64,000 bases of DNA from positions 217-64,216 of the forward strand of contig JAEZIZ010000096.1 of assembly GCA_023415915.1 (NCBI GenBank), given 5' to 3'. Positions 29,890 through 52,739 of the stretch are shown in pieces. Within the stretch, counting starts at the first letter, position 1; each line of letters starts with the position of its first letter. A program made the translations under genes and the position numbers. The notes under the pieces were generated by a model. The model saw nothing but the letters and a program-made list of their open reading frames with translations. It had not been told where the DNA came from and ran no database searches. The stretch comes from Bacillota bacterium (GTDB taxonomy: Bacteria > Bacillota > Clostridia > Christensenellales > SZUA-584).

Positions 29890-31005
29890 TTATCCGATTC
29901 TTTTTTCCGTCGCTTTATCAAAGATATGTATCAACTCGCGTTGAAATTTTAGCTGTAATGGGGTCTTCATAGGTATTCCCGTCCTGAATCTCTGCGGCAA
30001 GTCGACTGTATCAACGCGCACGACGGTGTCCCTTCCCTGAACGTCAACATGCAGATATATCTCGCTGCCCATAAGCTCAGAAATCATGACCGAACATGGT
30101 ATCAGATCGTCGTCGCCCTGCTCACAGACAGATATGTGCTCGGGTCTAATACCCAGTATCACATCTTTTTCGGCTTCTTCGTCTTTTAATGTTCGTTGTA
30201 AGCCTTCGCTGAGCTCGATTTTTGTGCAATCAAGTGATGCATAATATTTTCCTTTTATTTTTTCCAGTCTTGCATCAAAGAAGTTCATTTGAGGCGTTCC
30301 GATAAAGCCTGCTACAAACATGTTTGCAGGCGTATTAAACACTTCCTGAGGGGTACCAATCTGCTGTATGAGTCCGTCTTTCATAATGACTATCCTGTCG
30401 CCCAAAGTCATCGCTTCTATCTGATCATGAGTTACATAAATAAACGTGGTATTTAGCTTTTTGCGCAACAGTATTAATTCAGCACGCATCTGATTTCTCA
30501 GTTTTGCGTCAAGGTTAGATAGAGGCTCGTCCATTAAAAATACTTTCGGTTCGCGTACAATGGCACGGCCTATGGCTACTCTTTGCCTCTGTCCGCCCGA
30601 AAGAGCTTTTGGTCTCCTTTTTAACAAATCAGTAATTCCCAGTATCTCCGCTGCTTCCTTAACCTTCTTATCTATTACTGCTTTATTGACATGACGCAGC
30701 TTTAATGAGAAAGCCATATTTTCATATACAGTCATATGAGGATATAGCGCATAATTCTGAAATACCATTGCAATATCCCTGTCTTTAGGCGCGATATCGT
30801 TAACAAGCTTGTCATCTATATATATTTCACCTTCGGTAATCTCTTCAAGTCCGGCAATCATACGAAGAGTAGTGGACTTCCCACAGCCTGAAGGGCCAAC
30901 CAACACAATAAATTCCTTGTCTTCGATTTCAAGGTTAAAATCCTGTACTACCGGGGAGTTCTTCGTGTATTCCTTCTTCAAGTTTCTTAATGAAAGTTTC
31001 GCCAT
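29890..31005 (-). CDS. Carbohydrate ABC transporter ATP-binding protein (MsmK/MsmX/UgpC/MalK type)
   Basis: GPSGCGKST Walker A, LSGGQRQR signature, C-terminal TOBE-like regulatory domain. Confidence 0.9.
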   Translation of the reverse strand: MAKLSLRNLKKEYTKNSPVVQDFNLEIEDKEFIVLVGPSGCGKSTTLRMIAGLEEITEGEIYIDDKLVNDIAPKDRDIAMVFQNYALYPHMTVYENMAFSLKLRHVNKAVIDKKVKEAAEILGITDLLKRRPKALSGGQRQRVAIGRAIVREPKVFLMDEPLSNLDAKLRNQMRAELILLRKKLNTTFIYVTHDQIEAMTLGDRIVIMKDGLIQQIGTPQEVFNTPANMFVAGFIGTPQMNFFDARLEKIKGKYYASLDCTKIELSEGLQRTLKDEEAEKDVILGIRPEHISVCEQGDDDLIPCSVMISELMGSEIYLHVDVQGRDTVVRVDTVDLPQRFRTGIPMKTPLQLKFQRELIHIFDKATEKRIG

Positions 31006-31251
31006 ATGTACAGCTTTGATAGTCTGGCATTCGCCTCACTATCTCACATATGCAGAGCTAACCCGCATATGCTTTACGACAGGTCTCCACACTGCCGCAC
31101 CGCAAGCTAACGGATATACTTACCTCCTTTTTTATAGTATGCACAAACCCGTTTGGTGGAGTGGTCATGCGCAACTTTTTTTATACTTGATGTGTCTATC
31201 CGGATTACTCTCCGGCGCCTGTTGCTGCTTATCAGCAACTCACTTTCCTTA

Positions 31252-32133
31252 TTAATATTCTTTTTTTCTTGCCGACTCTATTTCATCGCTCCAGTCAAGA
31301 TGTTTATATTCCGCCGCTTCGGGCGCGTCCTTTATCCAATCGATAAAATCGTTCATGATGTCAAGGCTCCATATATCTGTGTCTATCTGAGCCGTTGTGT
31401 ATGTCTTATCTGCAAGCCTTTTAAATCCGAATATGTCCCTTAGGTGGGATTTCTCTGCCCTGACGACAACTGGCTCCACAAGGTGAGAAGGTATAAAGAT
31501 AACTCCGGAAATAGTTCCCAGCACGACGTCACCCGGCATGCATATGGCGTTGCCGATACGGCACGGCACATTCATACCCACCATTGTAGAATCTTCAATC
31601 GGCGTGGGGTCAATCCCTCTGTAATACACTTGGTATCCGTCGATTTTGACTATCTGTTCAAGATCTCTAATACCGCCCCATATCACGGCGCCTCCGTTTT
31701 TCGTGCGCGATTTTATCGCAGTTGAAAGGTTTCCTCCTACATATGTACCCTGGAAAATCTTATCAAACATATCAACTACGACTACGTCGTTTTCCACAAG
31801 GCTATCTACTACCCATTGGTTAAAATCACCGACGCGGCCTTCGTGTGTATGCCCATATTTCATCAAATAATCATGAAGATCAGGCCTTTTGGGCACCATT
31901 ACGGCTGTTACTGCACGCCCTACAAGCTGTACTCCCGGGTGCGACATCTTAAACCCGCCCTCATACTGAAACTTATACCCTCTCAGCCATAGCGCATGCC
32001 ACGCTTCTTCCAGCGTAATTTTCCGCACTCGGCGTAAAAGATCGTCGCTGACCTTTGGCCTTCCGTTTTCAAACCTTTCCCCTTTCCATTCCTGTGTCAG
32101 CTGTATAATGTCTTCTTTGCAATCAAACTTCAT
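31252..32133 (-). CDS. RraA-family protein (putative class II pyruvate aldolase / oxaloacetate decarboxylase-like), long form
   Basis: GRAVTA...GGNLSTAIKSRTKNGGAVIWGGIRD matches the RraA/HMG-aldolase core. At 293 aa it has N- and C-terminal extensions. Confidence 0.6.
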   Translation of the reverse strand: MKFDCKEDIIQLTQEWKGERFENGRPKVSDDLLRRVRKITLEEAWHALWLRGYKFQYEGGFKMSHPGVQLVGRAVTAVMVPKRPDLHDYLMKYGHTHEGRVGDFNQWVVDSLVENDVVVVDMFDKIFQGTYVGGNLSTAIKSRTKNGGAVIWGGIRDLEQIVKIDGYQVYYRGIDPTPIEDSTMVGMNVPCRIGNAICMPGDVVLGTISGVIFIPSHLVEPVVVRAEKSHLRDIFGFKRLADKTYTTAQIDTDIWSLDIMNDFIDWIKDAPEAAEYKHLDWSDEIESARKKEY

Positions 32134-32182
32134 AGGTTTTTTACCTTTCGTCTTCGGTTATATATTTGGTATCGTAATGCTT

Positions 32183-33403
32183 TTACAGTACTCCCGGGGA
32201 AGTCCAATAAGCTGCGGGCGCTTCTTCCCATAGAGGCATGCTCAAACCGCCCGGATCGAACACTATCTTTCCATTCCTCAGCGTCATCACGCATTCAAGC
32301 TTTTTATCTCCGTTAAGTCTTGCATTACCGCAGTCTGCGTAGCTGAAACTGCCTTCAAGCAGTTTTAACACAGCGATGTCCGCGCAGCTTCCCACTGACA
32401 GATTGCCAAGTTCAGGATGGCCGAAAATCTTTGCAGGGAACACGGTAGTCCTCGCTATGACTTCATTAAGCGGCATCCCGATGCAAAGATACTTTGACAT
32501 TATATTAAGTACATTAAGCGCTGCACCGTGTATGTTCTCCATGTAAAGATCGCTTGAAAGCGTATCAGGCCCGAATCCGTCCCTGTACGCAGGAACCGCG
32601 TTTCTGAACCAGAAGCTCCCCGCTCCATGGCCGAGATCAAAGAGCACGCCCCGTTCTCTCGCTTCAAGTATAAAATCGTTGACGCGCATTTCCTTATTCA
32701 GCACCGGAAACTGCTGGGCGTACATGTGCGTGTGTATGTCCCCTTTGCGAAGCCTTTTCAACAAATCCCGATACGTACGCTGCTCCTTATATGGATAAAA
32801 GTCCACCATAAGAGGTTTTCCGCACATTTCGGCGGCTTCCAGCGATGCTTCTACGGAAGCCCACGGAGGATGTTCGGCATCGAACGGGCGCATCGTCCAA
32901 TAATGCGCGGTCTTTACGGCTACCACAATATCCGAATATGCTTTTGCAATCTCGGCTACGACGCCTTTGTTGAATTCACTAGGCTTTTGTTCGGACGCCA
33001 TCTGCACCATACCGCCCGCCGCTATATTCAGCATGGCGAGTACTCTGGCTTCCGATTGGTCGATGACCTGTTCTTTGAAGTGGAAGAAGTCGCGCCATCC
33101 GCATGTGCCTGCGTCGATAGCGGTTACAACGCCCGCCTGCAGCATGTGCGCGTCCGCGTTGATGTTGTAGAGCTTGTCCTTCTGTTGAGGGAAGCTCGGA
33201 TATATATGGCAGTGACAGTCGATAAGTCCAGGTGTGACTATATACCCGGAGAGATTTACCGTCTTGTCGGCCAAGTCCGCGATATCCTTTTCAACCTTTT
33301 CAACTTTTCCGCCGGAGATCGCGATATCGTATATCCCATCGAGTCCGTTTGCCGGATCGATAAGCCTCCCTCCCTTTAGAAGGAGCTCGTATTTTTGTTT
33401 CAT
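32183..33403 (-). CDS. Amidohydrolase-superfamily metallohydrolase (deacetylase/dihydroorotase-like)
   Basis: Start at MKQKYELLLKGG (GGGAGAG SD). PGLIDCHCH HxH metal motif, later H and D ligands. Confidence 0.75.
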   Translation of the reverse strand: MKQKYELLLKGGRLIDPANGLDGIYDIAISGGKVEKVEKDIADLADKTVNLSGYIVTPGLIDCHCHIYPSFPQQKDKLYNINADAHMLQAGVVTAIDAGTCGWRDFFHFKEQVIDQSEARVLAMLNIAAGGMVQMASEQKPSEFNKGVVAEIAKAYSDIVVAVKTAHYWTMRPFDAEHPPWASVEASLEAAEMCGKPLMVDFYPYKEQRTYRDLLKRLRKGDIHTHMYAQQFPVLNKEMRVNDFILEARERGVLFDLGHGAGSFWFRNAVPAYRDGFGPDTLSSDLYMENIHGAALNVLNIMSKYLCIGMPLNEVIARTTVFPAKIFGHPELGNLSVGSCADIAVLKLLEGSFSYADCGNARLNGDKKLECVMTLRNGKIVFDPGGLSMPLWEEAPAAYWTSPGVL

Positions 33404-33450
33404 TTCTCTCTCCCTTTTAATCGTACAAATGAATAATAATGCTTTTACTG

Positions 33451-34455
33451 TTATACAATATGTCCAGCAGCCACCGCGCACGAGGCGTTTGCTAAAGCGG
33501 CGCTGCTGCAGGCAACGAGCGAATTTTTAGTTATCCGAAGGCTCGTCACGTTGCCGCTCTTCTGGTTGCAGCAGATTAAATAGTCCTCTTTCTCGCTCAG
33601 CGTTATCCATCTGGGCCAACTACCGCCGCATCCAGACTCGAATAATACATGCGGTTCCGCCGTGTTTACGTCTATCGCGGCTATAGTATCCGCGCCCCTG
33701 TTCGCCACATAAAGCACTCCGCTGCTTGAAAGGCATGCCGCGCCGGGATAATTTGTAATGCCGCGCTCGGTCGTACGCAATTCCGATATGACATTTGGCG
33801 TGCCCGAGATATCAAGTATGCTTACCGTGCTGTTAAGCTCGCCTATAATATAGGCTGACTTTCTGCTTTCAGACAGTATTACCTGCCTCGGGCCGCTTCC
33901 GGCCTCAATAGCGGTACTGCCGAGCAGTTCGCCGTCCGCCGCCCTTCGCCACAGCAGCATATCGAGTCCTAAATCCGCAACGCAAAGCGTTTTTTCAGCT
34001 CCCTGTAAAGCCTCGCGTCTTTCAGGAAAGCCGGTATAAACTTCCGCGCTCCAATGCGCATGGGGCTGGGCCTGACTGTCGGAAGCGTTGCGATGCATCC
34101 ACAGCACTTTTGTAAGCGCAGCGTCTGCCGCAAACACATCACCGCTTCCGTAGCAGCACCCAACGACTGTTTCACGACTGGCAAGCAGGTGGCAAAGTCC
34201 CGAACATCCGTCGATGCTGATTTGGCTGTCTATATAAAGCCGTCCGCCATCTCCCTTGATAAACAACACTGACGCGCCCGAGTCATATTCCTGCGCGGCA
34301 TATACTCCGTCCTCGCCCGGGCAGAGAAACGAAGGGTTCCTGCCAATACGCAGCCCGGTTTTTATCTCAAGGCTTCCGTAATTATCCATGCTTAGCAGAA
34401 GCAGGTCGTTGCCTTTGTCGGCGCTGTAGCCGCTTGCCAGCCAATAGCCGCACAT
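33451..34455 (-). CDS. 7-bladed beta-propeller lactonase (6-phosphogluconolactonase/YbhE-like)
   Basis: ADLGLD, GSGPRQ, YVANRGADTIAAIDV and PRWITL blocks match the lactonase propeller family pattern. Confidence 0.7.
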   Translation of the reverse strand: MCGYWLASGYSADKGNDLLLLSMDNYGSLEIKTGLRIGRNPSFLCPGEDGVYAAQEYDSGASVLFIKGDGGRLYIDSQISIDGCSGLCHLLASRETVVGCCYGSGDVFAADAALTKVLWMHRNASDSQAQPHAHWSAEVYTGFPERREALQGAEKTLCVADLGLDMLLWRRAADGELLGSTAIEAGSGPRQVILSESRKSAYIIGELNSTVSILDISGTPNVISELRTTERGITNYPGAACLSSSGVLYVANRGADTIAAIDVNTAEPHVLFESGCGGSWPRWITLSEKEDYLICCNQKSGNVTSLRITKNSLVACSSAALANASCAVAAGHIV

Positions 34456-34458: not shown

Positions 34459-34926
34459 TTACTCCGCCTCGACTATTACCTCTACCTCGACAGGTATATT
34501 GTTGTTAGGCATGTTATGCGTTCCCATAACCGTACACGCATGATATCCGCGCTCTTCAAGCGCCTCTGCAATGGTATCGGAAAATCCGTCCATGACGCCG
34601 TCCACATCGCAGAATCCTTCCGCACAGTTAACAAGCGCAAACACTTTTACAAACTTCTTTACCTTGTCAAGCGTACCTAAAATGTCTTTTAATGCGCCGA
34701 GTATAATTATCGCGCATTCTCTTGCAGCCGCGTAGCCTTCCTCAAAGGTAAGATCTTTGCCTATACGCCCTTTATAGATAGGTTCTCCGGTAATGGCGTC
34801 CTCCGGACCGTGTCCCGATACATATATCAGGCCATCCACACGGCGGAAGAGCACTATACCCCTCTTTTTCTTGTAAACAGGCTCTGTTTCCTTTCCATCT
34901 ACAATTACTTTATTTATGCTGTCCAT
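34459..34926 (-). CDS. RidA/YjgF/Rid-family protein (paralog 1)
   Basis: 155 aa. YVSGHGP...GKIG...ARECAIIILG...VDGFSD...HACTVMG pattern typical of the Rid family. Confidence 0.75.
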   Translation of the reverse strand: MDSINKVIVDGKETEPVYKKKRGIVLFRRVDGLIYVSGHGPEDAITGEPIYKGRIGKDLTFEEGYAAARECAIIILGALKDILGTLDKVKKFVKVFALVNCAEGFCDVDGVMDGFSDTIAEALEERGYHACTVMGTHNMPNNNIPVEVEVIVEAE

Positions 34927-34942: not shown

Positions 34943-35410
34943 TTACTTTCTAATGCGGATTATCGCGTCGACGACAACCGGCACGTTCATAGGAAGCGCA
35001 AACGCTCCCATAGCCGAGCGCGCATGCTGTCCGCGCCTTCCAAACACCTCTACCATCAGATCGGAAAAACCGTTTATTACAGCCGGCTGAGATGAGAAAT
35101 CTCCCGCACTGTTTACCAGGCCAAGCACCTTAACAAAATAATCCACTCTGTCCAGCTCGCCTATGTAGTCCTTTATGGTCGCCAGCATGTTGATCCCGCA
35201 AAGCCTCGCAGCCTGATAAGCTTCTTCCTGGCTTACGGTATCGCCAACTTTACCTACATAAACAGGCTTTCCCTCGGCATCGACCGGCAAATGTGCCGAA
35301 ACGTACAGCATATCACCATGAATCACAGCATCTACGACTCCACTTCCCCTACGGTCCTTTGAAGGAAGCTTTATGCCCAACTGTTCCAATCGTTTTCCTG
35401 TTTCGCTCAT
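34943..35410 (-). CDS. RidA/YjgF/Rid-family protein (paralog 2)
   Basis: 155 aa. Colinear with paralog 1 (YVSAHLP...GKVG...ARLCGINMLA...INGFSD...HARSAMG). Confidence 0.75.
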   Translation of the reverse strand: MSETGKRLEQLGIKLPSKDRRGSGVVDAVIHGDMLYVSAHLPVDAEGKPVYVGKVGDTVSQEEAYQAARLCGINMLATIKDYIGELDRVDYFVKVLGLVNSAGDFSSQPAVINGFSDLMVEVFGRRGQHARSAMGAFALPMNVPVVVDAIIRIRK

Positions 35411-35430: not shown

Positions 35431-36666
35431 TTATAATTCTGTACACATCTTAAACAGGTCGTACAGCAATATCACACAGCGTGGTACATGATAAGGCCCT
35501 TTGCCCTCAAACCCCTTGTTATCCAGGAGCATCCTGTTGTCGTGTGAAAGTATGCTGAACCATTCCCCGTTTTCGTGATCCCTGAAGTGCTTATCGACGT
35601 AATCGTGAAGCTTCTTAAAGTAGGTAAAATGCCTCTCGTTACCGTTAAGCAAAGCGCTCAGCGCCAAAGCGTTAAGGCCTTCCGCCTGCGTCCACCAGAC
35701 CTTGTCATGCCAATCTGCTATTGTCCCGGCATAATTTTGAGTACGCTGGGCATCTTTCGGAACTCGGTTCTCCACATCAAGCAGAAGTATGAATCCGCCG
35801 TTCTCCTCGTCGTAGCCGCGATCTATTATCCAGTCCAGAACTTCGCCTGCCCTCTTTATTATATTTTTATCGTTGAGTTCCATACCGGCACGCAGCGAGA
35901 ACCAGCACGACTCAAGAGCGTGACCGGGGTCCATTATCCTTCCCTGGTCGCGGAGCAGAGGCTTGCCGTCGGCGCCTACGTTCTCAAACACTGCTTTATA
36001 TTCATCGTTTGCGAATACATACATTGCGTTATGAAGCCTATATTTCAGCTCATCCGCATAGCGCTCGCCAAATAAGCGCATTCCCTCAATCGAAGCGAGC
36101 AGCGTCATAAAGTTGACCGCGTGGTTGCGAAAAGCCGAAGGCAGCCCTTCCTTTTCCAGCAGCGCCGTGTCTCTGGCGTTCTTAAATACCGTATCCGTAA
36201 GCTCGGCTGCAAACTTTAGCTGTTCGTCGGTGCGCTCATCGCCAAGCGCGACAAGGTACTCGTAATAACCCTTTATCGCGAAAACATCGTTGAAAAGGTT
36301 TGTTCCCGAATCGATGACGGAACCGTCACGTGCCATGGTGCCGTTAAAGCGTCCGTTACCCTTATAAGCGTACTTTTTCATCCACTCAACGCCCTCGGCA
36401 GCGATGCTCAGCCATTGGGGCCGTTTTTCAACGGTATTGTAGAGATACGAGAATGTGTAGATGTTGCGGCCTACGAACCATCCGGGCTTAACATCTTTAA
36501 ACACGTTTCCCTTTCTGTCGAAGCAGCTTAAATATCCCCCGTACTCGCGGTCTACAATCCTGGGCTCCCAGAACGGTACTATATCCTCGAGCAGTTCGCT
36601 CTTGTAATAATCGTACAAAGATTTCAGTTCTTCCTTGTGTGCAGTGATAAAATTTTTGTCAAACAT
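35431..36666 (-). CDS. AGE-family (N-acylglucosamine 2-epimerase-like) epimerase/isomerase
   Basis: 411 aa. Alpha/alpha-barrel pattern with repeated aromatic/His motifs (WEPR..D.EYGG; HALESCWF; WWTQAEG). Confidence 0.7.
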   Translation of the reverse strand: MFDKNFITAHKEELKSLYDYYKSELLEDIVPFWEPRIVDREYGGYLSCFDRKGNVFKDVKPGWFVGRNIYTFSYLYNTVEKRPQWLSIAAEGVEWMKKYAYKGNGRFNGTMARDGSVIDSGTNLFNDVFAIKGYYEYLVALGDERTDEQLKFAAELTDTVFKNARDTALLEKEGLPSAFRNHAVNFMTLLASIEGMRLFGERYADELKYRLHNAMYVFANDEYKAVFENVGADGKPLLRDQGRIMDPGHALESCWFSLRAGMELNDKNIIKRAGEVLDWIIDRGYDEENGGFILLLDVENRVPKDAQRTQNYAGTIADWHDKVWWTQAEGLNALALSALLNGNERHFTYFKKLHDYVDKHFRDHENGEWFSILSHDNRMLLDNKGFEGKGPYHVPRCVILLYDLFKMCTEL

Positions 36667-46115: not shown

Positions 46116-47450
46116 TCAGCCTGCGAGCAGTTCGTTTACCTGTGCTTCTGCATCCTTGAGTGCTGTTGGGGCGTCTTTAAGCCCCGCAAGAACGGCTTGT
46201 GATTCGTTATACATTATCGTCGTTATCGCGTTCATGTTGATGTTTCCGGGAACCGGCTTACCATACTGAAGCGATTCAAGGAATACTTTCAGTTCAGGAT
46301 CAGAATATTTGGGGTCATCGATAGCATCCCTGCACGCAGAGATCGTATCGCTGAACGTTACCGAAATTTCCGGAGACGCAAGGAACTTAATCCAAAGGAA
46401 AGCAGCATCTTTCTCGTCGTCCGTGCATTCTTTCGTCATGCCGATATTCCATCCACCCTGCTGACACTTGATAGGATATTCCGCCTTATATTGCGGGAAT
46501 ATCGCAAATCCCATGTTTATATCCGGATTAGCTTCGTGTATGGGAGCAAGGTCGTATGATCCGCTAACATACATTCCGAGTTTGCCCTCTGCAAACAGGT
46601 TGCGGTTCGTCGTATTGTCGTTCTCCAGAACGCTTTTCGGAGAAATGCTCTTAAGGCTCGCCCAATACTCAAGAGCTTCCACACCTTGCGGAGTATTGAA
46701 AGCTGCTGCCGTGTGATCCTCATTAAGCAGTTCAACGCCGTTGCTGAACATCAGCGAATAAACCTGAGCTGTTGTATTGCCTGTTCCATATCCGCACAAT
46801 CCAAATCCATAGATACCATTTCCAAGATCCGTTATCTTTTCGCCATATTCAACGAGCTCGTCCCATGTTGCAGGTCCCTTTTCGGGATCGAGACCGGCTT
46901 GAGTGAACAGATCTTTGTTGTAAATAAGCGCCATAACTTCCGTGCGATAGGGTAGCGCATAATGCAGTCCGTCAACTTCAGAAGTCTCAAGCCCGCCTTC
47001 GTAATATGTAGCGTTGAGATCGAGGCCATGTTTTACAGCGAGATCGTCAATAGCTATAAGGTTTCCCATCCTTGCGTAGGGTATGGTCCATGCGATCGCC
47101 ATGTCGATAATGTCCGGAATTGTTCCCGCCTGCATCGCAGCGAGGTACTTGTCTTCCATGCCATCCCACGGTCCGTACTCAAATTTCACATTGATGTTAG
47201 GATAGGTTTCTTGGAACTTCGCGAGAAGAGTATCCATCTTTCCTTCGTTCCAGGTGCCCGTCCACATGGTAAGGTTAGCACTAATCTGCGTAGGGTCATC
47301 TGCGGGTGCTGTAGGAGCACTCTGCTCTGATTTCTCCGGAGCCTTCGCCGATTCGCTTGGCGCTGCAGGAGCATTGCCACCGCATGCCGCGAACATACAG
47401 GCAACCAGCACCAAGGAGATGATGGCAATCAACTTTTTCTTCATTATCAT
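46116..47450 (-). CDS. Carbohydrate ABC transporter substrate-binding lipoprotein (CUT1 family)
   Basis: Lipobox FAACGG, low-complexity linker, ~440 aa typical of oligosaccharide SBPs. Confidence 0.85.
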   Translation of the reverse strand: MIMKKKLIAIISLVLVACMFAACGGNAPAAPSESAKAPEKSEQSAPTAPADDPTQISANLTMWTGTWNEGKMDTLLAKFQETYPNINVKFEYGPWDGMEDKYLAAMQAGTIPDIIDMAIAWTIPYARMGNLIAIDDLAVKHGLDLNATYYEGGLETSEVDGLHYALPYRTEVMALIYNKDLFTQAGLDPEKGPATWDELVEYGEKITDLGNGIYGFGLCGYGTGNTTAQVYSLMFSNGVELLNEDHTAAAFNTPQGVEALEYWASLKSISPKSVLENDNTTNRNLFAEGKLGMYVSGSYDLAPIHEANPDINMGFAIFPQYKAEYPIKCQQGGWNIGMTKECTDDEKDAAFLWIKFLASPEISVTFSDTISACRDAIDDPKYSDPELKVFLESLQYGKPVPGNINMNAITTIMYNESQAVLAGLKDAPTALKDAEAQVNELLAG

Positions 47451-47509: not shown

Positions 47510-48490
47510 TCAAATTGTAACAACAGCGTTTTTTTGTAGCGACTCGCATTCTTTACCGACAAGGTAGATTGTATCGCGCGCGCTTTCGGGAGTGACGCCG
47601 GTAACCTTTGAATCTCCGTTCAATATTGCCGCAAATTCGGTTAGTTCCTGATACACTCCGTCTATTTCGGACGGAACTCCTGTAAGCGTTTCCATTTTTG
47701 CGTAATAAAAATCTTTCCCTGCCGGATAAACGGCGACCTTCCCGTCCTTATACTCAATAAGTCCGTGTTCAAATACAGCCAGATATCCGCTTGACCACGG
47801 GAATGTGGAATCATTCCATCCGCCTTCCGCTACGACTGTTATGTCTTTGTTGTTGAATATATAATGGGTATTTATATAGCTCATGTGGATATCTGGCTGC
47901 TCTATACCTACACTGTGCACGGCATCGGGCAAACCAAACAGGTAATTGACCATATCGGTATCATGAATGTGCATCTCATAACAGACCATTTTGCATAGAT
48001 CCGGATTCATATACCAAGATCCTTGGGGATGCACTCCGTAATAACGCCTAAGAGAAAGGTAACGCAGCCTGCCAAGACTTTCGTCCGCTATTTGCTGCTT
48101 TAAATAGCGGTATTCAGGCCAATAGCGCAGCACCTGCCCCACCATCATCTTTACGCCTTTTTCTTTTGCTTTTGCTATCATTTCGTCCGCTTCGCCCACC
48201 GAATGAGCCATCGGCTTTTCGCAGAATACGTGCATGCCTCTCTCAATGCATTTCAGAGAGTATTCATAATGCAAAAACGACGGAACACAGATATCAACAG
48301 CATCGGGCCTGATATCGGCAAGCATCTCGTCTATATTGCAATATGCCCTGCAGTTAAGCACCTTTGAATACTTTTCTGCCGCTTCAAAGTTCATATCAAC
48401 TACCGCGCACACCTCAAGGCCTTTTACATATTTGTAAGCCTCGATATGGTTTGCTCCCATGCCTCCTGTTCCTATGACTGCTATCTTCAT
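47510..48490 (-). CDS. Gfo/Idh/MocA-family oxidoreductase
   Basis: MKIAVIGTGGMG Rossmann N-terminus, CEKP motif. Confidence 0.85.
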   Translation of the reverse strand: MKIAVIGTGGMGANHIEAYKYVKGLEVCAVVDMNFEAAEKYSKVLNCRAYCNIDEMLADIRPDAVDICVPSFLHYEYSLKCIERGMHVFCEKPMAHSVGEADEMIAKAKEKGVKMMVGQVLRYWPEYRYLKQQIADESLGRLRYLSLRRYYGVHPQGSWYMNPDLCKMVCYEMHIHDTDMVNYLFGLPDAVHSVGIEQPDIHMSYINTHYIFNNKDITVVAEGGWNDSTFPWSSGYLAVFEHGLIEYKDGKVAVYPAGKDFYYAKMETLTGVPSEIDGVYQELTEFAAILNGDSKVTGVTPESARDTIYLVGKECESLQKNAVVTI

Positions 48491-48537
48491 TATGATCTCC
48501 TTTTAGGTATTGCAATTGCAATGATTTAATTGAGAAA

Positions 48538-48551
48538 TGTAAGCGTTTACA
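48538..48551. promoter_or_regulatory. LacI-family/cre-like palindromic operator TGTAAGCGTTTACA
   Basis: 13 of 14 positions palindromic. Fits TGNAANCGNTNNCA. Starts 5 nt downstream of the -10 of the promoter at 48557-48585. Confidence 0.65.
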
Positions 48552-48556
48552 TTATT

Positions 48557-48585
48557 ATTATACTATTTCACCGTATGCATGTCAA
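48557..48585 (-). promoter_or_regulatory. Consensus sigma-A promoter of the oxidoreductase/ABC/enzyme operon
   Basis: Minus strand: TTGACA, 17 nt, TATAAT. Confidence 0.7.
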
Positions 48586-48665
48586 TATCGCTTTCTTAAA
48601 AATTCCGTTACCCTTTTATTCCACCGCATGTATGCCCTTAGTTCTGCAGACTGCACTTAATCTGT

Positions 48666-49700
48666 TTACTGTACCGTTGTTACTTTACTGGAGAATAAGA
48701 ATGTACCTACTTTAAGGTCCTTTGATTCGGCTATAATACTTCCTACACACTGTGCAGGAACAATATTGCTTATGCATGCAAGCTCACTTGAGGCATAGTG
48801 CTGCCGTAAAACAAGTATTTCACTTTCCGAGAGCTCCACGTTGGAATCCGTTACGAATACAACTTTTGTGCCCTTTTGCGCGACCTGACGCGCCAGATTC
48901 TCCATTAAGCTGTAGCATTTATCCTTTGGCGCAAATATAAAGGCTGTCAGCCCTTTTCCCAGCATCTCAAAAGGCCCGTGCCTAAACTGCGCCGCTTCAA
49001 GATATATTGCAGGGTGCTTTGCGACCTCTTTAGCAAACAGCGCGCCAGCGTCGCCGGTGCAGCAGCTGTAACCGCGCGCAATGAATATAAGCGTATCTTT
49101 TACATCAATGTGGGCTTTTATAGCGTCCTTCATTATATAAAACGAGTCCAGCGCTTTTTCAAGGTTAAGCAGAGAATCGGCACAACGTTGCTGCTCATCG
49201 CTGTCCCATGCGCCTATGAAGCTCTTAGCAAACATATGCATAAGCAGCAAAGGCGCTATATAATTTCGAGTGCTTACGGCGACTTCGCTTTCCATGTAAA
49301 GTTCCAAAAGCAGGTTCGAGCGTTTACCCAGCGGGCTGAGCGCGTCGTTTGTAACCCCCACCACAAAAACGTCTTTGCTTAACTTTTCCGTCAGCTCAAC
49401 AATTTCCGCGCTTCTGCCGCTTTGGGATACTATTACGACTATGTCGTCGTCGGAAACGCTCTCCATCTCATAGTGAATAAGCTGGCTGGTTACCTGTGTG
49501 TCGCATAGCATACCGGCGTTGCGCAATATCGTCGCCGCGTTCATACAGGCGGAGTATGACGAGCCCATTCCCGTAAGCAATACCCGGCGGTAGCTGCGTT
49601 TTGAAAGCTCGCTTATCTGTGAGATATAGTTCAAATACAGCTTGTATCCCGCCGATACATCCTTCGCTTGGTTTAAAACGTCCTGCTCATAAATGTTCAT
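48666..49700 (-). CDS. Double-SIS-domain protein (FrlB/AgaS/GlmS-isomerase-like sugar-amine phosphate deglycase/deaminase)
   Basis: Start at MNIYEQD. TGMGSSY and VSQSGRSAE SIS motifs, second SIS repeat, ~345 aa. Confidence 0.7.
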   Translation of the reverse strand: MNIYEQDVLNQAKDVSAGYKLYLNYISQISELSKRSYRRVLLTGMGSSYSACMNAATILRNAGMLCDTQVTSQLIHYEMESVSDDDIVVIVSQSGRSAEIVELTEKLSKDVFVVGVTNDALSPLGKRSNLLLELYMESEVAVSTRNYIAPLLLMHMFAKSFIGAWDSDEQQRCADSLLNLEKALDSFYIMKDAIKAHIDVKDTLIFIARGYSCCTGDAGALFAKEVAKHPAIYLEAAQFRHGPFEMLGKGLTAFIFAPKDKCYSLMENLARQVAQKGTKVVFVTDSNVELSESEILVLRQHYASSELACISNIVPAQCVGSIIAESKDLKVGTFLFSSKVTTVQ

Positions 49701-49714: not shown

Positions 49715-50797
49715 TTACGATATTAATAATTGTTCCAAGCCGCAAGGTTCGCCGTTACGGACATAGCTGTATGCGCTTGCATTGCCCATCTTCACACACT
49801 CCTCAAGGCTCTTGCCAAGCAGCTTTCCTATGCAATATCCTGCGTTATAGTTATCGCCTGCTCCCGTAACCACTTTAGGCTGCTTGACCGTCTCCGGTAT
49901 TACGCTTGCCTCGTTTTCTTTTGTAACCGCAACGCTGCATCCCAGGCTATGCACGGTAATCTCATCTATTTCCAGGCGCATTAGCAGCGTTTGTGCCGTC
50001 TGCGATATCGATTCGGCCTTTTCCCCGATGTACTCCGCAAGATTGACAGCCTCTTTCCGGTTTGCGCTAAGCATCGTATAGTATCTTTGCTTAAGCCGGG
50101 GCATCAGCGAGATAAGCTCAGAAACGCGGTTAAGCGGAGCAGTGGAGATATCTGCAAGGTCCATAAACAATATTTGCATCTTTTCTTTTCTCTTTTGCGT
50201 ATCACCAAGCAATATCTCTTTAATTATATCGTTGCCATGATTAAGCCCGCCCCAGTTGACAAAGCATATCAGATCGCTTTCCAGCAACTCGTTTAGTTTT
50301 CGTTCTCCTATTCTTTGCTTCACTAAACGCGGAGTAATATCATCCAGCGTGCTCCGTTCTCCAAACATTATCTTGCCGTCCGGAAACTCCAGAGCGTAGC
50401 ATTCCGCCGGAGCGCTGATCGCCGTTGTTTCGCAGCTTCTTTGGAGCTGCTCGAATACTGACAATACACTGCCTTCCCCAATCGCGCCCGCGCAATGTAA
50501 CGTCAGCCCTTTTTTCGCAAGAGAATGTGCAAGTATAGGGGCGTTCCCCCCCATACGCCTGTAAACGCGCTTAACGCTTATATCTGCGCTTGCGCTTTCG
50601 TGCTTTATTATAAATTCATTAAACTGTTTTATGGATTCAAAGCGGCCGTAAGCGGTCATCGGCATGACGATTTCATCCACATAACCGTCAAAACCTACAA
50701 ATGCGGAGCGCTCGCTTAATATGTATTCACCATTATGCTTTTGGCCCTGATTTTCCATAATAGACAGTAGCTTCTCTATACACCCGGAAAGCTTCAA
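49715..50797 (-). CDS. Ribokinase-superfamily (PfkB-like) sugar kinase
   Basis: MGGNAPILA and C-terminal TGAGDNYNAG motifs. Start ambiguous (TTG 50797 or ATG 50758). Confidence 0.65.
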   Translation of the reverse strand: MKLSGCIEKLLSIMENQGQKHNGEYILSERSAFVGFDGYVDEIVMPMTAYGRFESIKQFNEFIIKHESASADISVKRVYRRMGGNAPILAHSLAKKGLTLHCAGAIGEGSVLSVFEQLQRSCETTAISAPAECYALEFPDGKIMFGERSTLDDITPRLVKQRIGERKLNELLESDLICFVNWGGLNHGNDIIKEILLGDTQKRKEKMQILFMDLADISTAPLNRVSELISLMPRLKQRYYTMLSANRKEAVNLAEYIGEKAESISQTAQTLLMRLEIDEITVHSLGCSVAVTKENEASVIPETVKQPKVVTGAGDNYNAGYCIGKLLGKSLEECVKMGNASAYSYVRNGEPCGLEQLLIS

Positions 50798-50822
50798 ACT
50801 CTCAGAGAATTCCGTATCAATA

Positions 50823-50836
50823 TGTAAGCGTTATCA
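50823..50836. promoter_or_regulatory. LacI-family/cre-like operator TGTAAGCGTTATCA
   Basis: Related to the site at 48538-48551. Lies 11 nt downstream of the -10 of the promoter at 50848-50876. Confidence 0.6.
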
Positions 50837-50847
50837 TTTTCATTCGA

Positions 50848-50876
50848 ACTATATCACATTCACTGGGCTTAGTCAA
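50848..50876 (-). promoter_or_regulatory. Sigma-A promoter of the kinase/SIS operon
   Basis: Minus strand: TTGACT, 17 nt, TATAGT. Confidence 0.65.
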
Positions 50877-50986: not shown

Positions 50987-51049
50987 GTATTTACGGCCTG
51001 TTTGACGTACCCTTTTATTATAAACAACACTCAAGAAAGGCGTGAAAAA

Positions 51050-51676
51050 ATGAAAACGTTTCAAAAAATAAATTCTATTGGTATTGTACCTGTCGTTGTA
51101 ATTGAAGATATCGAAAAAGCTATTCCTGTCGCAGACGCTCTGGCCGCAGGCGGCATAAACGTAATGGAGATCACTCTTAGAACGAAGTGCGGCCTTGATG
51201 CCATAGAAGCTGTTACAAAAAACCGCCAGGATATGCTGGTTGGCGCCGGCACTGTTTTGACGCTGGAGCAATGTAAAAAATGTGTCGATTCGGGCGCAAA
51301 ATTCATCGTTTCGCCCGGATTTGAAGAAAAAATAGTCTCATGGTGTGTACGGAATGGCGTTGATGTATTCCCCGGTTGCGTTACTCCGACCGAGATAATG
51401 TATGCTCTGAAATACGGTTTAGAGGTAGTGAAATTCTTCCCCGCAAATGTCTACGGCGGCCTGACAGCATTGAAGTCGCTCTCCGGGCCATTCGGAAACA
51501 TCAGATTCATACCCACGGGCGGTATAGACGAAAAAAATCTCAAAGAATACATATCATCTCCCGCTGTATTTGCCGTCGGAGGCAGCTGGCTTTGCAGCAA
51601 GAGCGACATTGCAGCGGGCAACTTCAATAAAATAACCGAGCTTTGCAAACAAGCTTTGAGCATCGCCCGTAAATAA
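51050..51676 (+). CDS. eda: KDPG/KHG aldolase (Eda), short canonical form
   Basis: Start at [17 protein letters not shown]. Colinear with residues 1-205 of the 1121-2077 product. ~208 aa. Confidence 0.85.
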
Positions 51677-51713
51677 TGCTTTAAGAAATCATGCAATGAA
51701 AGGAGTGATTAAC

Positions 51714-52739
51714 ATGAAGTATATTACGTTCGGCGAAATAATGCTGAGGCTCAAATCGCCGGGACACGAACGCCTTTTTCAAAGTCCCATGCTGGAAGCG
51801 ACGTTCGGCGGCGGAGAGGCTAACGTTGCGGTCTCGCTTGCTAATTATGGCGAGGACGCGGCGTTTTTTACTGTGCTTCCTTCAAACAAAATAGGAGACG
51901 AATGCATAAGGGAACTCAGGCGGTTTAATGTTGAAACCTCTACGATAATTCGCGGCAGCGGAAGAATGGGGATATACTATCTGGAAAACGGAGCAAATCA
52001 GCTTCCCAGCAAAGTAATCTATGACCGCGAATTTTCCTCCGTCTCTATTGCAAAGCCCGGCAGCATCGATTGGGAAAAAGTACTGGATGGCCGCGATTGG
52101 TTTCATATCACGGGCATTACGCCAGCGATATCACAGAGCGCGATGGAACTTTCATTTGAGAGCGTTAAGGCCGCAAAGTCTCTTAGATTAACAGTTTCAT
52201 GCGACCTAAACTACCGTAAAAATCTCTGGAAATACGGCAAGGAAGCAAAAGATGTGATGCGTGAGCTTGTAAAATACGTGGATATAGCTATTGCAAACGA
52301 AGAAGACTGCCAGAAATCGCTGGGTATTGCCGCATCGGTGGACGTGGAAAGCGGCAGTCTGGACACGGATAAATATAAATCTATCGGAGACATGATACTC
52401 GCCCAATACCCCCAGATGAAAATGATAGCAATTACGTTACGCGAAAGCAAAAGCGCGGATATCAACGGCTGGGCCGCTTGCCTCAACGATCGCAATTCAT
52501 TTCTATTAAGCAAACGCTATGAGATTCGGGATATAATCGACCGGGTCGGCGGCGGGGATTCTTTTGCGGGTGGCCTTATTTACGGGCTCAATCATTATAC
52601 AAGCCTTCAGGAATCTTTGGAATTCGCGGTAGCCGCCTCCTGCTTAAAGCATTCAATAATAGGCGATTTTAATCGCGTAAGCGTTGCCGATGTTGAAAGC
52701 CTTATGAAAGGAGGCGGAAGCGGCAGAGTTCAAAGATGA
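51714..52739 (+). CDS. kdgK: 2-dehydro-3-deoxygluconokinase (second copy)
   Basis: Start at [10 protein letters not shown] (GGAG SD). Colinear along its full length with the 83-1111 product, roughly two-thirds identical by eye. Confidence 0.9.

Follow-up and report, generated by a model that had tools for sequence, protein, structure and literature searches.

A putative LacI regulon on a decayed tRNA-Lys island of an uncultured Clostridium, with a core predicted to oxidise N-acetylhexosamines to pyruvate

Island boundaries and predicted regulation

The 22-gene sugar-utilisation locus at positions 29890-52739 belongs to a tRNA-Lys island in a spore-forming Clostridium that is uncultured. What does the locus degrade, and do its genes serve a single pathway? 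We addressed this question in a window of 64,000 nucleotides, for which a sequence-only reading had proposed one linear route from an amino sugar through an aminoaldonate to KDG or KDPG. The gene families that it named are present at the coordinates given below, according to Pfam, NCBIfam and comparison with solved structures. However, of its three Gfo/Idh/MocA genes only two lie in the locus (43165-44271 and 47510-48490), the third (24386-25522) being outside the island, and its gene list omitted a LacI-family regulator (40930-41961). All genes of the locus are on the reverse strand except those for Eda and the KDG kinase-like protein. The true starts of the genes for the PLP enzyme (38796), the BadF kinase (37684), the double-SIS protein (49700), Khk (50758) and Eda (51050), and probably that of the amidohydrolase gene (33406), give shorter genes than the maximal ORFs.

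The locus is flanked by 47-nt direct repeats of a tRNA-Lys 3' half (26863-26909 and 55489-55535), a pattern with two matches against 0.00 expected in our search. The left copy, which is att-like, lies on the forward strand and aligns with one mismatch, marks the left island boundary, while the right copy is the 3' half of a tRNA-Lys(UUU) gene (55489-55564, reverse strand; ARAGORN). Between the repeats we also found an IS21-type insertion sequence, which is within the island and outside the pathway (27223-29491, forward strand; IstA-like transposase 27223-28755, IstB ATPase 28739-29491; Pfam Mu-transpos_C_2, IstB_IS21, E 5.9e-61), and two Pfam-detected pieces of island debris, a C-terminal fragment of a type I restriction R subunit (53026-54558, reverse strand) and a truncated tyrosine integrase (54914-55396, forward strand). 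Because the repeats bracket the locus, it is island cargo, as had been claimed. The island is decayed.

Eighteen of the genes lie close together on one strand, in one run that includes a single importer, and Gfo/Idh/MocA oxidoreductase A (47510-48490; Pfam, NCBIfam) is the first gene of the long operon. The main-operon promoter (48538-48585, reverse strand) is a perfect sigma-70-type site, TTGACA-17-TATAAT (48585-48557), followed directly by the operator TGTAAACGCTTACA (48538-48551). The Khk-SIS operon has a promoter-like site (50823-50876, reverse strand), TTGACT-17-TATAGT (50876-50848), followed by the operator TGATAACGCTTACA (50823-50836), so that at both promoters a LacI-type operator is located just 3' of the -10 element. 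The 14-nt operator motif TGWWAACGCTTACA occurs four times in the locus, where 0.06 copies are expected, and nowhere else in the 64 kb. The LacI-family regulator (LacI and Peripla_BP domains), which we propose to be the repressor of the locus, has orthologues of 56-79% identity in related loci, and there the same operator motif is found upstream of the LacI and AGE operons. These predicted operators suggest that LacI controls the whole locus as one catabolic regulon.

A recurring core and its accessory modules

We compared the locus with about 90 related loci, and found it to be modular rather than one linear 22-gene pathway. Its core consists of an SDR, the PLP enzyme, two RidA paralogs, a cog3964 amidohydrolase, an RraA-like protein and, usually, a lactonase, an AGE-family protein, a LacI regulator and a CUT1 ABC importer; the accessory modules are GH4 with BadF, two Gfo enzymes with an MR dehydratase, Khk with the double-SIS protein, and Eda with KdgK. 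Blautia, Mediterraneibacter, Hydrogenoanaerobacterium and Acetatifactor are among the genera in which the core recurs, and altogether dozens of Clostridia species have it; it is widespread in gut Clostridia and not peculiar to this island. Among the 33 species-representative loci with a PLP enzyme at least 45% identical to that of the window, many of which end at contig edges, both RidA paralogs are found in 27, the SDR in 27, a deacylase in 24, the lactonase in 20, AGE in 17 and the RraA-like gene in 15, with KdgK/Eda nearby in only 2. Minimal loci (L035, L036, L038, L039, L055 and L075) have the core enzymes only, without a kinase. The whole order is kept in L001, an unrelated contig of 562 kb, with proteins 72-94% identical to those of the window (55% for the lactonase). 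Khk-SIS also forms an frl-like operon of its own elsewhere. The full set is nearly syntenic in L014, and at least four metagenome contigs from this species (L086-L089) carry the identical arrangement, together with the restriction and integrase remnants. The arrangement is more than chance.

The importer consists of an MsmK/UgpC-type ATPase (29890-31005; NCBIfam NF008653, 486 bits, cut-off 432; ABC_tran, OB_MalK and TOBE_2), which also follows the RraA-like gene in L001, two CUT1 permeases (44282-46029, namely 44282-45145 and 45142-46029; BPD_transp_1), and a solute-binding protein (46116-47450; SBP_bac_1, E 2.4e-48) that is only 24-29% identical to those of simpler core loci. Gfo/Idh/MocA oxidoreductase B (43165-44271; Pfam, NCBIfam) travels with the window-type transporter in L001, L007, L010, L014 and L016. 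The SDR is generic, as are both Gfo enzymes, and their NCBIfam equivalog scores are all under the cut-offs. The mandelate-racemase-subgroup member of the enolase superfamily (41998-43140; MR_MLE_N/C) is a proposed acid-sugar dehydratase, with arabinonate and galactonate dehydratases as its best NCBIfam matches, all below cut-off, and with KxK 167/169, D198/E224/E250, D273 and H299/H300 readable in its sequence.

The GH4 glycosidase (38802-40106; Pfam; PDB 1s6y, E 2.6e-112, 5c3m, and BglT 1up7) belongs to the 6-phospho-beta-glucosidase (ChbF/BglT) clade, and the BadF/NagK-like kinase (36659-37684; PF01869; NagK_SO3507, 70.7 bits), whose start overlaps the PLP gene stop, is present in all seven independent GH4-bearing loci. 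Front-end glycosidases differ between loci: in Acetatifactor and others the start of the PLP gene is overlapped by GH89/NAGLU-like genes, and L014, L016 and L027 have GH2 genes of the beta-mannosidase/glucosaminidase-like kind. That all three types adjoin the core agrees with the amino-sugar reading. The double-SIS protein (48666-49700; PF01380, two stretches), of the GlmS isomerase-domain/NagB-II/FrlB type, matches PDB 2poc (1.2e-17), NagB-II 8eol (2e-13) and FraB-like 8glr (1.6e-6), and is a proposed amino-sugar-phosphate deaminase or deglycase. Its partner is a PF25270 'Khk'/PfkB-like kinase (49715-50758; Pfam), to which protein P0121 is 100% identical over 347 aa. Apart from the window lineage, only two to three close relatives have this pair next to the core, and the Khk family is found in a Paenibacillaceae MAG in a stand-alone, frl-like SIS-SBP-permease-permease-Khk operon. 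Eda, a KDPG/KHG aldolase (51050-51676, forward strand; PF01081, E 1.4e-70; NF004325, 261 bits against 241; TIGR01182, 256 against 156), and a PfkB-family KDG kinase-like protein (51696-52739, forward strand; PfkB) adjoin the core in the window, L009 and L018. The kinase scores 478 bits with a KHG/KDPG-aldolase-kinase fusion model (its sugar-kinase part) and 201 bits with a haloarchaeal KDG/KDGal kinase model, both below cut-off.

Core enzymes and the proposed route

The SDR (40122-40937; adh_short; NCBIfam glucose 1-dehydrogenase subfamily, 199 bits against a cut-off of 215) is a proposed (N-acetyl)hexosamine 1-dehydrogenase. The 7-bladed beta-propeller lactonase (33451-34455; PF10282, E 2.8e-33) is weakly conserved (24-37% identity) and absent from some loci, e.g. 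that of Blautia producta. The AGE-family N-acylglucosamine 2-epimerase homologue (35431-36666; PF07221, E 7e-42) is closest to true GlcNAc 2-epimerases (PDB 8bry, 6f04 and 2gz6, E 1e-58 to 1e-62), with cellobiose epimerases at about 1e-12. For the cog3964 (EF_0837/Atu3266-type) amidohydrolase (32183-33406; NCBIfam NF006689, 360.5 bits against 371; PDB relatives 8je0, 8wzy, 2ics and 2ogj), which has a visible HxH motif, we propose a role as N-acetyl-aminoaldonate deacetylase. It is absent in L009, L013, L015, L016, L041 and L050, where an enzyme of about 525 aa of the D-aminoacylase/OngB type (1m7j at 6e-64; PpOngB 9kb1 at 3e-53) adjoins RidA1 instead. A proven GlcNAc1A deacetylase belongs to this family (PMC12017989), and the non-orthologous displacement reinforces the proposed chain from sugar to KDG.

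The fold-type I PLP enzyme (37681-38796) is SelA/DgaE-like (TIGR01437, 168.6 bits, cut-off 385; PDB 7lc0, DgaE), and DgaE is its sole characterised relative besides SelA. It had been taken for a DgaE-like enzyme, yet we rejected it as a DgaE equivalog, since it scores 157.8 bits against the cut-off of 600 and is missing the His-His motif and two phosphate-site arginines. The catalytic lysine (K212) is kept, as is one of the three phosphate-site arginines of DgaE (R308, equivalent to Arg301); the equivalents of Arg332 and Arg346 are lost in all 85 relatives, which fits the ABC uptake, and these two features uphold the PTS-independence claimed for the locus. The His162/His163 pair of DgaE, in which His163 blocks enamine release (PMC9529869), is likewise absent from the window enzyme and all 85 relatives. 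No His stands in the His163 column of the RidA-linked relatives, and in L035, L036 and L039 a His lies close by, within a gapped part of the alignment; the predicted correlation of a present His with a lack of RidA is only partial. RidA genes go together with this subfamily, and the window has two, paralog 1 (34943-35410; PF14588) with the catalytic arginine kept, a proposed enamine/imine deaminase, and paralog 2 (34459-34926; PF14588) with this arginine replaced by Cys. We propose that the PLP enzyme is an ammonia-lyase of non-phosphorylated aminoaldonates.

Two possible end routes are encoded in the locus. The RraA-like protein of about 300 aa (31252-32133; PF03737) has an invariant R156-D157 pair, and its AlphaFold model (pLDDT 83) is closest to 5ir2, the HMG/CHA aldolase 3noj (E 1e-13) and RraAS2, short RraAs not being among the closest structures. 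Relatives of it are embedded in non-phosphorylative sugar-acid clusters, in Paenibacillus and Massilimaliae alongside an MR dehydratase, SDRs, UxuA and a lactonase, and a 2-keto-3-deoxy sugar acid is the known substrate of one RraA-like enzyme (PMC8563752). We propose that it is a class II pyruvate aldolase or another 2-keto-3-deoxyaldonate enzyme. KdgK and Eda, which make up the KDG/KDPG end that had been assumed, adjoin the core here and so link it to KDG; the conserved end enzyme of the core is the RraA-like protein, and not necessarily KdgK/Eda.

The explanation that we favour, at a little better than an even chance, is a LacI regulon on a decayed tRNA-Lys island whose core would convert an N-acetylhexosamine via N-acetylaminoaldonate, aminoaldonate and a 2-keto-3-deoxyaldonate (KDG) to pyruvate. 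The core most likely oxidises N-acetyl-amino sugars to the amino-sugar acid, removing acetate and ammonia. In this scheme, all of whose substrates and reactions we infer, an N-acetylhexosamine, most likely GlcNAc, would be imported, made from ManNAc by AGE, or cut from an imported glycoside. The SDR would oxidise it at C1 to the lactone, which the lactonase would open to N-acetyl-D-glucosaminate or a close analogue, and the amidohydrolase would then remove acetate. From the non-phosphorylated aminoaldonate the PLP enzyme would eliminate water and ammonia, and the RidA pair would handle the released enamine/imine to give 2-keto-3-deoxygluconate (KDG), which may go to pyruvate directly by the RraA-like aldolase or by KdgK phosphorylation and Eda cleavage. 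Each enzyme of the minimal loci maps to exactly one of these roles, and the central chain of the sequence-only reading corresponds one-to-one with the co-occurring core genes. Of its overall interpretation this chain, the PTS-independence and the island are supported; the DgaE equivalence, the single linear pathway and the third Gfo gene are not. Around the core, a beta-linked disaccharide may be imported by the CUT1 system, phosphorylated by BadF and split by GH4; Khk and the double-SIS protein may turn a second amino sugar or ketosamine into hexose-6-phosphate and ammonia or amine; and the two Gfo enzymes with the MR dehydratase may, by oxidation and dehydration, make a 2-keto-3-deoxy acid from a neutral sugar moiety, which would likewise feed KdgK/Eda. 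The scheme is weakest in its roles for Gfo, MR, Khk and SIS.

Other substrates and other chemistries

We found no paper on such a route in these bacteria. The marine deacetylase/deaminase/KdgK route named in the sequence-only reading is real: it is the ong pathway, with the OngB deacetylase, the OngC deaminase, the RidA protein OngD and KdgK, in which the phosphorylated acid does not serve as substrate (PMC9537276). The core follows a similar logic with non-homologous enzymes. Since the BadF gene overlaps the PLP gene, a phosphorylated aminoaldonate is possible in GH4/BadF-type loci. In a Salmonella-like variant of this kind, BadF would phosphorylate the aminoaldonate or its N-acetyl form at O6, the PLP enzyme would, like true DgaE, turn the 6-phosphate into KDPG for cleavage by Eda, and the RraA-like protein would be used otherwise. 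Besides the overlap, the presence of Eda, the retained R308 and DgaE as the only characterised relative speak for it. However, BadF is missing from most core loci and tracks GH4 (7/7), the Arg332/Arg346 equivalents and the His pair are gone in all 85 relatives, the DgaE equivalog score is far under its cut-off, uptake is by ABC transporter rather than PTS, and the ong pathway does not use the phosphorylated acid; we thus consider this variant quite unlikely. The same chemistry acting on ManNAc, GalNAc or a 6-deoxy-N-acetylhexosamine of bacterial glycans (QuiNAc, FucNAc), with a different ecological role, is unlikely as well. As C6 phosphorylation would not be possible on such candidates, they would call for oxidation without phosphorylation and for an aldolase as the last enzyme, and this agrees with the kinase-free minimal core ending in the RraA-like candidate aldolase, the rarity of adjacent KdgK/Eda (2/33), the RraA-like family in fucose/rhamnose-style clusters and, we infer, the energetic oddity of oxidising GlcNAc given NagA/NagB. 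Against it, the GH89/NAGLU-like genes and the nearness of AGE to GlcNAc 2-epimerases indicate GlcNAc/ManNAc, KdgK and Eda in the window imply a 6-hydroxy product, and the replacement of the amidohydrolase by D-aminoacylase-type enzymes implies that C2 has the D (gluco/galacto) configuration.

Two further readings we regard as highly improbable. In the first, the main substrates of the locus would be glycated amines of the Amadori/Heyns type or amino-alditols. The Gfo enzymes would oxidise the amino-alditol, Khk would phosphorylate the ketosamine, the double-SIS protein would be an FrlB-like deglycase, and the amidohydrolase, PLP enzyme and RidA pair would process the released amine part. Khk and the double-SIS protein do form an frl-like operon alone in the Paenibacillaceae MAG, share their operator with the main operon, and include a weak SIS match to FraB-like 8glr; however, outside the window lineage only two to three close relatives have them beside the core, dozens of species have the core without them, the SIS protein is nearer GlmS and NagB-II than FraB, and the SDR, lactonase, AGE and glycosidases would be left without a role. 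A mosaic of unrelated sugar modules, juxtaposed by island assembly and sharing no pathway, is hard to reconcile with one operator type at both promoters that matches the orthologous LacI loci, with 18 tightly packed same-strand genes and a single importer, and with synteny of the full set in L001 and nearly so in L014, even though the modules are found separately elsewhere and the mobile element carries IS21 and gene fragments.

For the favoured oxidative core, GlcNAc, ManNAc, GalNAc and 6-deoxy-N-acetylhexosamines would all fit as substrate. An anaerobe that oxidised GlcNAc rather than using NagA/NagB would lose ATP, so that the substrate in nature may be one that is unable to enter the NagA/NagB route.

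Gene content and island setting

The sequence-only reading had proposed, for positions 29890-52739, an oxidative amino-sugar/aminoaldonate pathway ending in KDG/KDPG, and ORF listing together with profile searches bore out its gene list nearly item by item. Twenty genes form a minus-strand run from 50758 down to 29890. In the order of transcription, they encode a Khk-type kinase, a double-SIS protein, a Gfo/Idh/MocA protein (Gfo A), a solute-binding protein (SBP), two permeases, a second Gfo/Idh/MocA protein (Gfo B), an MR-type enolase-superfamily enzyme, a LacI regulator, an SDR, a GH4 protein, a SelA/DgaE-like PLP enzyme (37681-38796), a BadF kinase, an AGE epimerase, two RidA paralogs of family PF14588 (RidA1, 34943-35410, and RidA2, 34459-34926), a beta-propeller lactonase, an amidohydrolase (32183-33406), an RraA-like protein (31252-32133) and an MsmK-type ATPase. 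Eda and a KDG-kinase-like gene (KdgK) are divergent from this run. The earlier list had to be amended in that only two of its three Gfo genes lie inside the interval, the third (24386-25522) being part of a separate cluster, and in that it lacked the LacI regulator inside the locus; several ORF starts are also shorter according to the gene calls on identical metagenome contigs.

The locus adjoins a tRNA cluster, and its place on a tRNA-integrated island was confirmed by a far-end direct repeat of the 3' part of the tRNA and by an integrase beside the tRNA. The repeat (26863-26909, 47 nt) duplicates the tRNA-Lys 3' half, as found in the tRNA at 55489-55535, with a single mismatch, and the two copies bracket an IS21 element, the 22 genes, a type I restriction R-subunit fragment and the truncated integrase. 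Since the integrase is merely a 160-aa fragment, the island is probably immobile, and as at least four metagenome contigs share its junctions, it is fixed in this uncultured species. Terminator-like hairpins (26820-26862 and 55446-55488) lie immediately 5' of the tRNA-Lys repeat copies, with the arms AAAGTCCGATGA..TCATCGGACTTTT at one copy and AAAGCCCTTAAAC..GTTTAAGGGCTTTT at the other. Past the tRNAs are recO, era, a 7TM-HD gene, phoH and the sporulation gene yqfD, a flank which indicates that the host is a spore-forming member of the Clostridia.

Just beyond the island is a second sugar cluster on the minus strand (16807-26543), containing a DeoR regulator, a ROK kinase, a single-SIS (HxlB-like) protein, an OMPdecase/HUMPS (HxlA-like) protein, a cupin-type glucose-6-phosphate isomerase, a CUT2 ABC importer, a Gfo/Idh/MocA enzyme, probably the third Gfo of the earlier list, and a xylose-isomerase-like TIM barrel. 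Molybdopterin-dependent xanthine-dehydrogenase-like subunits, FAD-binding and MoCo-binding, are encoded at 12877-16007 (minus strand).

Conservation and regulation of the core and its accessory modules

The PLP enzyme has thousands of relatives in Clostridia MAGs, many of them 55-80% identical to it. We retrieved about 90 related loci (L-numbers below), against which each of the 22 proteins of the locus was scored. The whole gene order is kept on one contig (L001) at 72-94% identity (55% for the lactonase), and the set is almost complete in Ca. Limiplasma pullicola (L014). Among 33 species representatives with a PLP enzyme at least 45% identical to that of the window, where many loci are cut by contig ends, both RidA paralogs are found in 27 loci, as is the SDR, followed by the deacylase (24/33), the lactonase (20/33), the AGE protein (17/33) and the RraA-like protein (15/33). 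The loci of Acetatifactor, Ca. Egerieenecus and Ca. Limiplasma stercoravium contain nothing beyond the SDR, PLP, RidA, deacylase, lactonase, AGE and RraA-like enzymes. We therefore defined the core as the SDR, the PLP enzyme, RidA1, RidA2, the amidohydrolase and the RraA-like protein, usually accompanied by the lactonase, the AGE protein, LacI and a CUT1 ABC importer; among the cultured bacteria that carry it are Blautia producta DSM 2950, whose locus lies at 926814-947896 of NZ_CP039126, Mediterraneibacter hominis and M. glycyrrhizinilyticus. The remaining genes form accessory modules, namely, GH4 with the BadF kinase, always together in the loci compared; Gfo B with the window-type transporter and, in some cases, Gfo A and the MR enzyme; Khk with the SIS protein; and Eda with KdgK, which are adjacent in L009 and L018 too.

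A Clostridia-type core locus at 55-77% identity is found on a contig labelled 'MAG: Bacteroides thetaiotaomicron' (L012, JAWZDV010000033.1), which is probably mis-binned. In L026, L028, L031, L032 (Breznakiella homolactica) and L034, a PLP enzyme 48-55% identical to that of the window has a different gene context: RidA and cog3964 genes are both kept in L034 and absent from L032, which we annotated in detail and where the neighbours are instead an ABC importer, a 465-aa MR galactonate-dehydratase-like enzyme, UxuA, a GH1 protein, an SDR and two Gfo proteins. L041 and L050 each harbor the PLP-RidA-SDR set in two tandem copies, of which one is accompanied by a D-aminoacylase-type enzyme and a ROK gene and the other by paired RidAs.

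A single large gap (48490-48666) interrupts the long gene run; it contains a perfect TTGACA-17-TATAAT promoter directly followed by the palindrome TGTAAACGCTTACA, and the Khk-SIS promoter region has TGATAACGCTTACA at the equivalent position. In the 64 kb, where 0.06 copies of this motif are expected, there are four, all of them in the locus. As the motif also precedes the LacI-SDR-PLP and AGE-SBP operons of related loci, that of B. producta among them, we predict it to be the operator of the locus's own LacI. Its presence at the Khk-SIS promoter places Khk-SIS in the regulon of the core, which speaks against a view of the locus as a functionless mosaic. One-mismatch copies within coding sequences, near the 5' end of GH4 (40058-40071) and in Gfo A (47681-47694), could be auxiliary operators for looping. 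The totals of the promoter and terminator scans were at chance level, and the promoter evidence that we used is solely the perfect promoter in the large gap with its adjoining operator.

A candidate oxidative route for N-acetylhexosamines

Judging from sequence relationships, we consider, with slightly better than even confidence, that the most likely function of the locus is oxidative, non-phosphorylative catabolism of N-acetylhexosamines via an aminoaldonate. The pathway read from the sequence is thus partly supported: the core enzymes fit one job each in a chain, but the locus as a whole is modular, and the roles of its accessory genes can only be suggested weakly. In the chain, the SDR would oxidize C1, the lactonase would hydrolyse the lactone, the amidohydrolase would remove the N-acetyl group, the PLP enzyme would eliminate water and ammonia (alpha,beta-elimination), RidA would hydrolyse the resulting enamine/imine, and the RraA-like protein would cleave the 2-keto-3-deoxy acid; KdgK and Eda would provide a second, semi-phosphorylative exit in the window. 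The lactonase is absent in B. producta, and its step is dispensable. Four independent observations support the core chain: the displacement of the deacylase, the active site of the PLP enzyme, the amino-sugar glycosidases and the context of the RraA-like family.

The window amidohydrolase scores 360.5 bits against NF006689 (cog3964; cut-off 371), has the PDB relatives 2ics (2.5e-32) and 2ogj (7.4e-25), and contains the HxH motif, whereas it matches D-aminoacylases at about 1e-6 only. Six loci (L009, L013, L015, L016, L041 and L050) are without cog3964, and in them an enzyme of about 525 aa from the D-aminoacylase family adjoins RidA1, with matches to D-aminoacylase 1m7j at 6e-64 and to PpOngB, a proven N-acetylglucosaminate deacetylase (PMC12017989), at 3e-53. 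This displacement argues that the step hydrolyses an N-acyl-D-alpha-amino acid, a description that an N-acetyl-2-amino-2-deoxy-D-aldonate of gluco or galacto configuration fits exactly. Crystal structures of cog3964 amidohydrolases exist, and we know of no physiological role or substrate for them; our search for Clostridia-relevant literature on cog3964/Atu3266/EF0837 and on 8JE0, 8T7J and 8WZY found none in a scope that left out most subscription journals, which makes this weak evidence.

Salmonella DgaE (7lc0) is the sole characterised non-SelA relative of the PLP enzyme, which resembles it at a profile E-value of 2e-55 and keeps the Schiff-base lysine (K212 in FSGGK, aligned with DgaE K213). 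The scores of the window enzyme are far below the curated cut-offs, at 157.8 bits against 600 for NF047797 and 168.6 against 385.3 for TIGR01437. His162/His163 are strictly conserved in DgaE-type ammonia-lyases (DGLs) down to about 40% identity, and His163 of DgaE protonates C3, thereby preventing the release of a toxic enamine (PMC9529869). The H163A variant of DGL shows an enamine transient at 293 nm. Where DgaE reads YVKSHHCVQ, the window reads FYFMNIQYD, and the His-His pair is absent from all 85 PLP relatives aligned. Arg301, Arg332 and Arg346 of DgaE are placed at the substrate phosphate (PMC9529869); Arg301 alone is kept in any of the 85 relatives (R308 in the window), and the window enzyme has Gly at position 332 and Leu at 346. 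It makes mechanistic sense that a subfamily without His163 should be genetically tied to Rid proteins. The idea that RidA-less PLP relatives keep the DgaE histidine found only a partial correlation, some clades having a single His at this column and many having none.

In an alignment with E. coli RidA, whose catalytic arginine is R105, RidA1 keeps this residue (R130, in HARS) and RidA2 has a Cys there (HACT). RidA2 is nevertheless conserved and linked to the PLP enzyme as tightly as RidA1, so that it may form a heteromer or have a different role.

About 300 aa long and well conserved, the family of the RraA-like protein has an invariant Arg-Asp pair (R156-D157). In Paenibacillus humicola and Massilimaliae, this family is found with an MR-type galactonate-dehydratase-like enzyme, UxuA, an ABC importer, glucose/rhamnose-1-dehydrogenase-like SDRs and an SGL lactonase; by this gene context, it appears to fill in for the aldolase that a non-phosphorylative sugar-acid route would otherwise lack. 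The predicted structure (pLDDT 83) is nearest to the HMG/CHA-aldolase branch of the fold, with Foldseek matches to 3noj at 1.2e-13 and to short RraAs at 1e-7 to 1e-9, so the model places the protein in this branch rather than among the RNase E regulators, as a putative aldolase. A known RraA-like enzyme acts on 2-keto-3-deoxyglucarate (PMC8563752). In Massilimaliae timonensis (L092, 8001-9176), an RraA-like protein is fused to a fragment of UxuA (mannonate dehydratase), which ties the family to KDG-forming chemistry.

By sequence similarity, the glycosidases found with the core are of the amino-sugar type: six loci have a GH89/NAGLU-like gene that overlaps the start codon of the PLP gene, and three have a GH2 beta-mannosidase/exo-glucosaminidase-like gene. 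NCBIfam gave no specific assignment for these neighbours. The AGE protein is far nearer to true GlcNAc 2-epimerases than to cellobiose epimerases. The window GH4 protein had been taken for a ChbF-like phospho-glycosidase, and it does group with 6-phospho-beta-glucosidases (1s6y at 2.6e-112), scoring 379 bits against 1s6y, 378 against 5c3m and 242 against BglT, compared with about 170 for 6-phospho-alpha-glucosidases and 81-90 for AglA/LplD; its closest sequence relatives thus place it in the ChbF/CelF/BglT/LicH clade. NCBIfam suggested instead a MelA/AglA-type enzyme for non-phosphorylated alpha-glycosides, which we dropped after the PDB comparison.

For the accessory modules, only tentative roles can be suggested. 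GH4 with the BadF kinase suggests ABC import of a beta-disaccharide followed by phosphorylation and cleavage. Khk and the double-SIS protein, the latter closest to GlmS and NagB-II, also form a stand-alone frl-like operon elsewhere (L090), and would probably convert a second amino sugar or a ketosamine to a hexose phosphate. The MR enzyme has, as read from its sequence, K167/K169, D198, E224, E250, D273 and H299/H300, and thus carries the KxK and His-Asp signature of acid-sugar dehydratases, the subgroup motifs being KxK at the end of strand 2, three carboxylate metal ligands and a His-Asp dyad on strands 7 and 6; it misses every equivalog cut-off. Together with the two Gfo proteins, it may turn a neutral sugar into a 2-keto-3-deoxy acid for KdgK/Eda.

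Relation to known pathways and significance

The marine route that the sequence-only reading had mentioned does exist. It is the ong pathway, by which Pseudoalteromonas prydzensis uses C1-oxidised chitin products and in which N-acetylglucosaminate is deacetylated and deaminated to KDG with the help of RidA, and KdgK acts last (OngB, OngC, OngD, KdgK; PMC9537276, PMC12017989). As in ong, an amidohydrolase-superfamily enzyme would deacetylate an N-acetyl-aminoaldonate, followed by PLP-dependent deamination without phosphorylation. A RidA-family protein is required in ong and KDG passes to KdgK and KDPG aldolase; the window encodes a pair of paralogous PF14588 Rid proteins and, adjoining Eda, a PfkB protein that resembles KDG kinase, and the OngB/D-aminoacylase-family deacylase itself is found in six relatives of the locus. 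On the other hand, the window deacetylase is of the cog3964 type and the D-aminoacylase-like OngB is absent from it, and the PLP enzyme has fold type I (SelA/Aminotran_5-like) whereas OngC has fold type III (PMC9537276). In addition, the window has paired Rid proteins, the RraA-like end enzyme and AGE, an ABC importer takes the place of TonB and an SSS transporter, the acid would form intracellularly by the SDR and lactonase rather than outside by an LPMO, and the hosts are anaerobic Clostridia. Hence the core works like ong, yet is not a member of it, the enzymes in the window being non-homologous.

The Salmonella dga system shares with the locus a homologous PLP enzyme and the sequence from aminoaldonate to 2-keto-3-deoxy acid to aldolase cleavage. 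However, the locus has no PTS, its PLP enzyme is without the His162/His163 motif and keeps just one of the three phosphate arginines, and the equivalog score is far under the cut-off; with four defining features failing when tested, the locus is not a dga system. The additional RidA, amidohydrolase, SDR and lactonase point to an N-acetyl sugar, not the free acid, as the starting compound. A haloarchaeal route from GlcN to glucosaminate and a DgaE homologue, which is a genomic prediction only, has been described for Natrarchaeobius chitinase clusters (PMC12343721). In these clusters, likewise linked to amino sugars, a sugar dehydrogenase and a DgaE homologue are encoded together with a Rid/RutC-family gene and an enolase-superfamily dehydratase, but deacetylation (CE14) is proposed to precede oxidation there and the intermediate to be phosphorylated, cog3964, AGE and RraA-like genes are lacking, and the host belongs to another domain of life (PMC12343721).

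Non-phosphorylative L-fucose, L-rhamnose, pentose and Entner-Doudoroff routes also use a dehydrogenase, a lactonase and a 2-keto-3-deoxy acid cleaved to pyruvate and an aldehyde, and the RraA-like family is found in such clusters in Paenibacillus; they differ in that a dehydratase, not deacetylation and PLP-dependent ammonia elimination, yields the 2-keto-3-deoxy acid. The Khk and double-SIS pair resembles the kinase and deglycase pairing of frl/fra (FrlB/FraB deglycase, FrlD/FraD kinase, ABC), and the stand-alone operon in L090 has the B. subtilis frl gene order, but the kinase is PF25270 and not of FrlD type, the SIS protein is nearer to GlmS/NagB-II, and the pair in the window is accessory to a far larger locus. 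In the literature searched, which excluded most subscription journals so that absence is weak evidence, we found no paper on the Clostridia locus, nor anything Clostridia-relevant on N-acetylhexosamine/N-acylmannosamine dehydrogenases or N-acetylglucosaminate pathways.

Amino sugars are major gut nutrients, and their catabolism is thought to begin with phosphorylation (NagA/NagB-type routes). More speculatively than for the locus itself, gut and rumen Clostridia may possess a widespread, unrecognised non-phosphorylative 'amino-sugar Entner-Doudoroff' route, a possibility to which we give rather less than even weight, proceeding through intracellular oxidation, deacetylation, a RidA-dependent SelA-like ammonia-lyase and an RraA-type aldolase to pyruvate. 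Its N-acetylhexosamines would come from mucin, N-glycans, chitin or sialic-acid breakdown. What makes the pathway notable is its wide distribution in gut Clostridia and the testable functions that it suggests for several orphan families. To our knowledge, the large SelA-like PLP clade, annotated as 'selenocysteine synthase' or 'DgaE', has no known physiological role, as is the case for cog3964, for which the locus offers a concrete, testable substrate. The absence of the proton-donor histidine, combined with obligatory RidA partners, provides a natural test case for the handling of reactive enamines in the cell, and the cultured carriers allow direct testing. If true, the route would provide functions for four orphan families, namely, cog3964, the non-DgaE SelA-like PLP clade, the 300-aa RraA-like proteins and the paired PF14588 Rid proteins, and a conserved oxidative alternative in Lachnospiraceae, Oscillospiraceae and their relatives would alter the metabolic reconstructions of these abundant bacteria and the cross-feeding models that rest on them.
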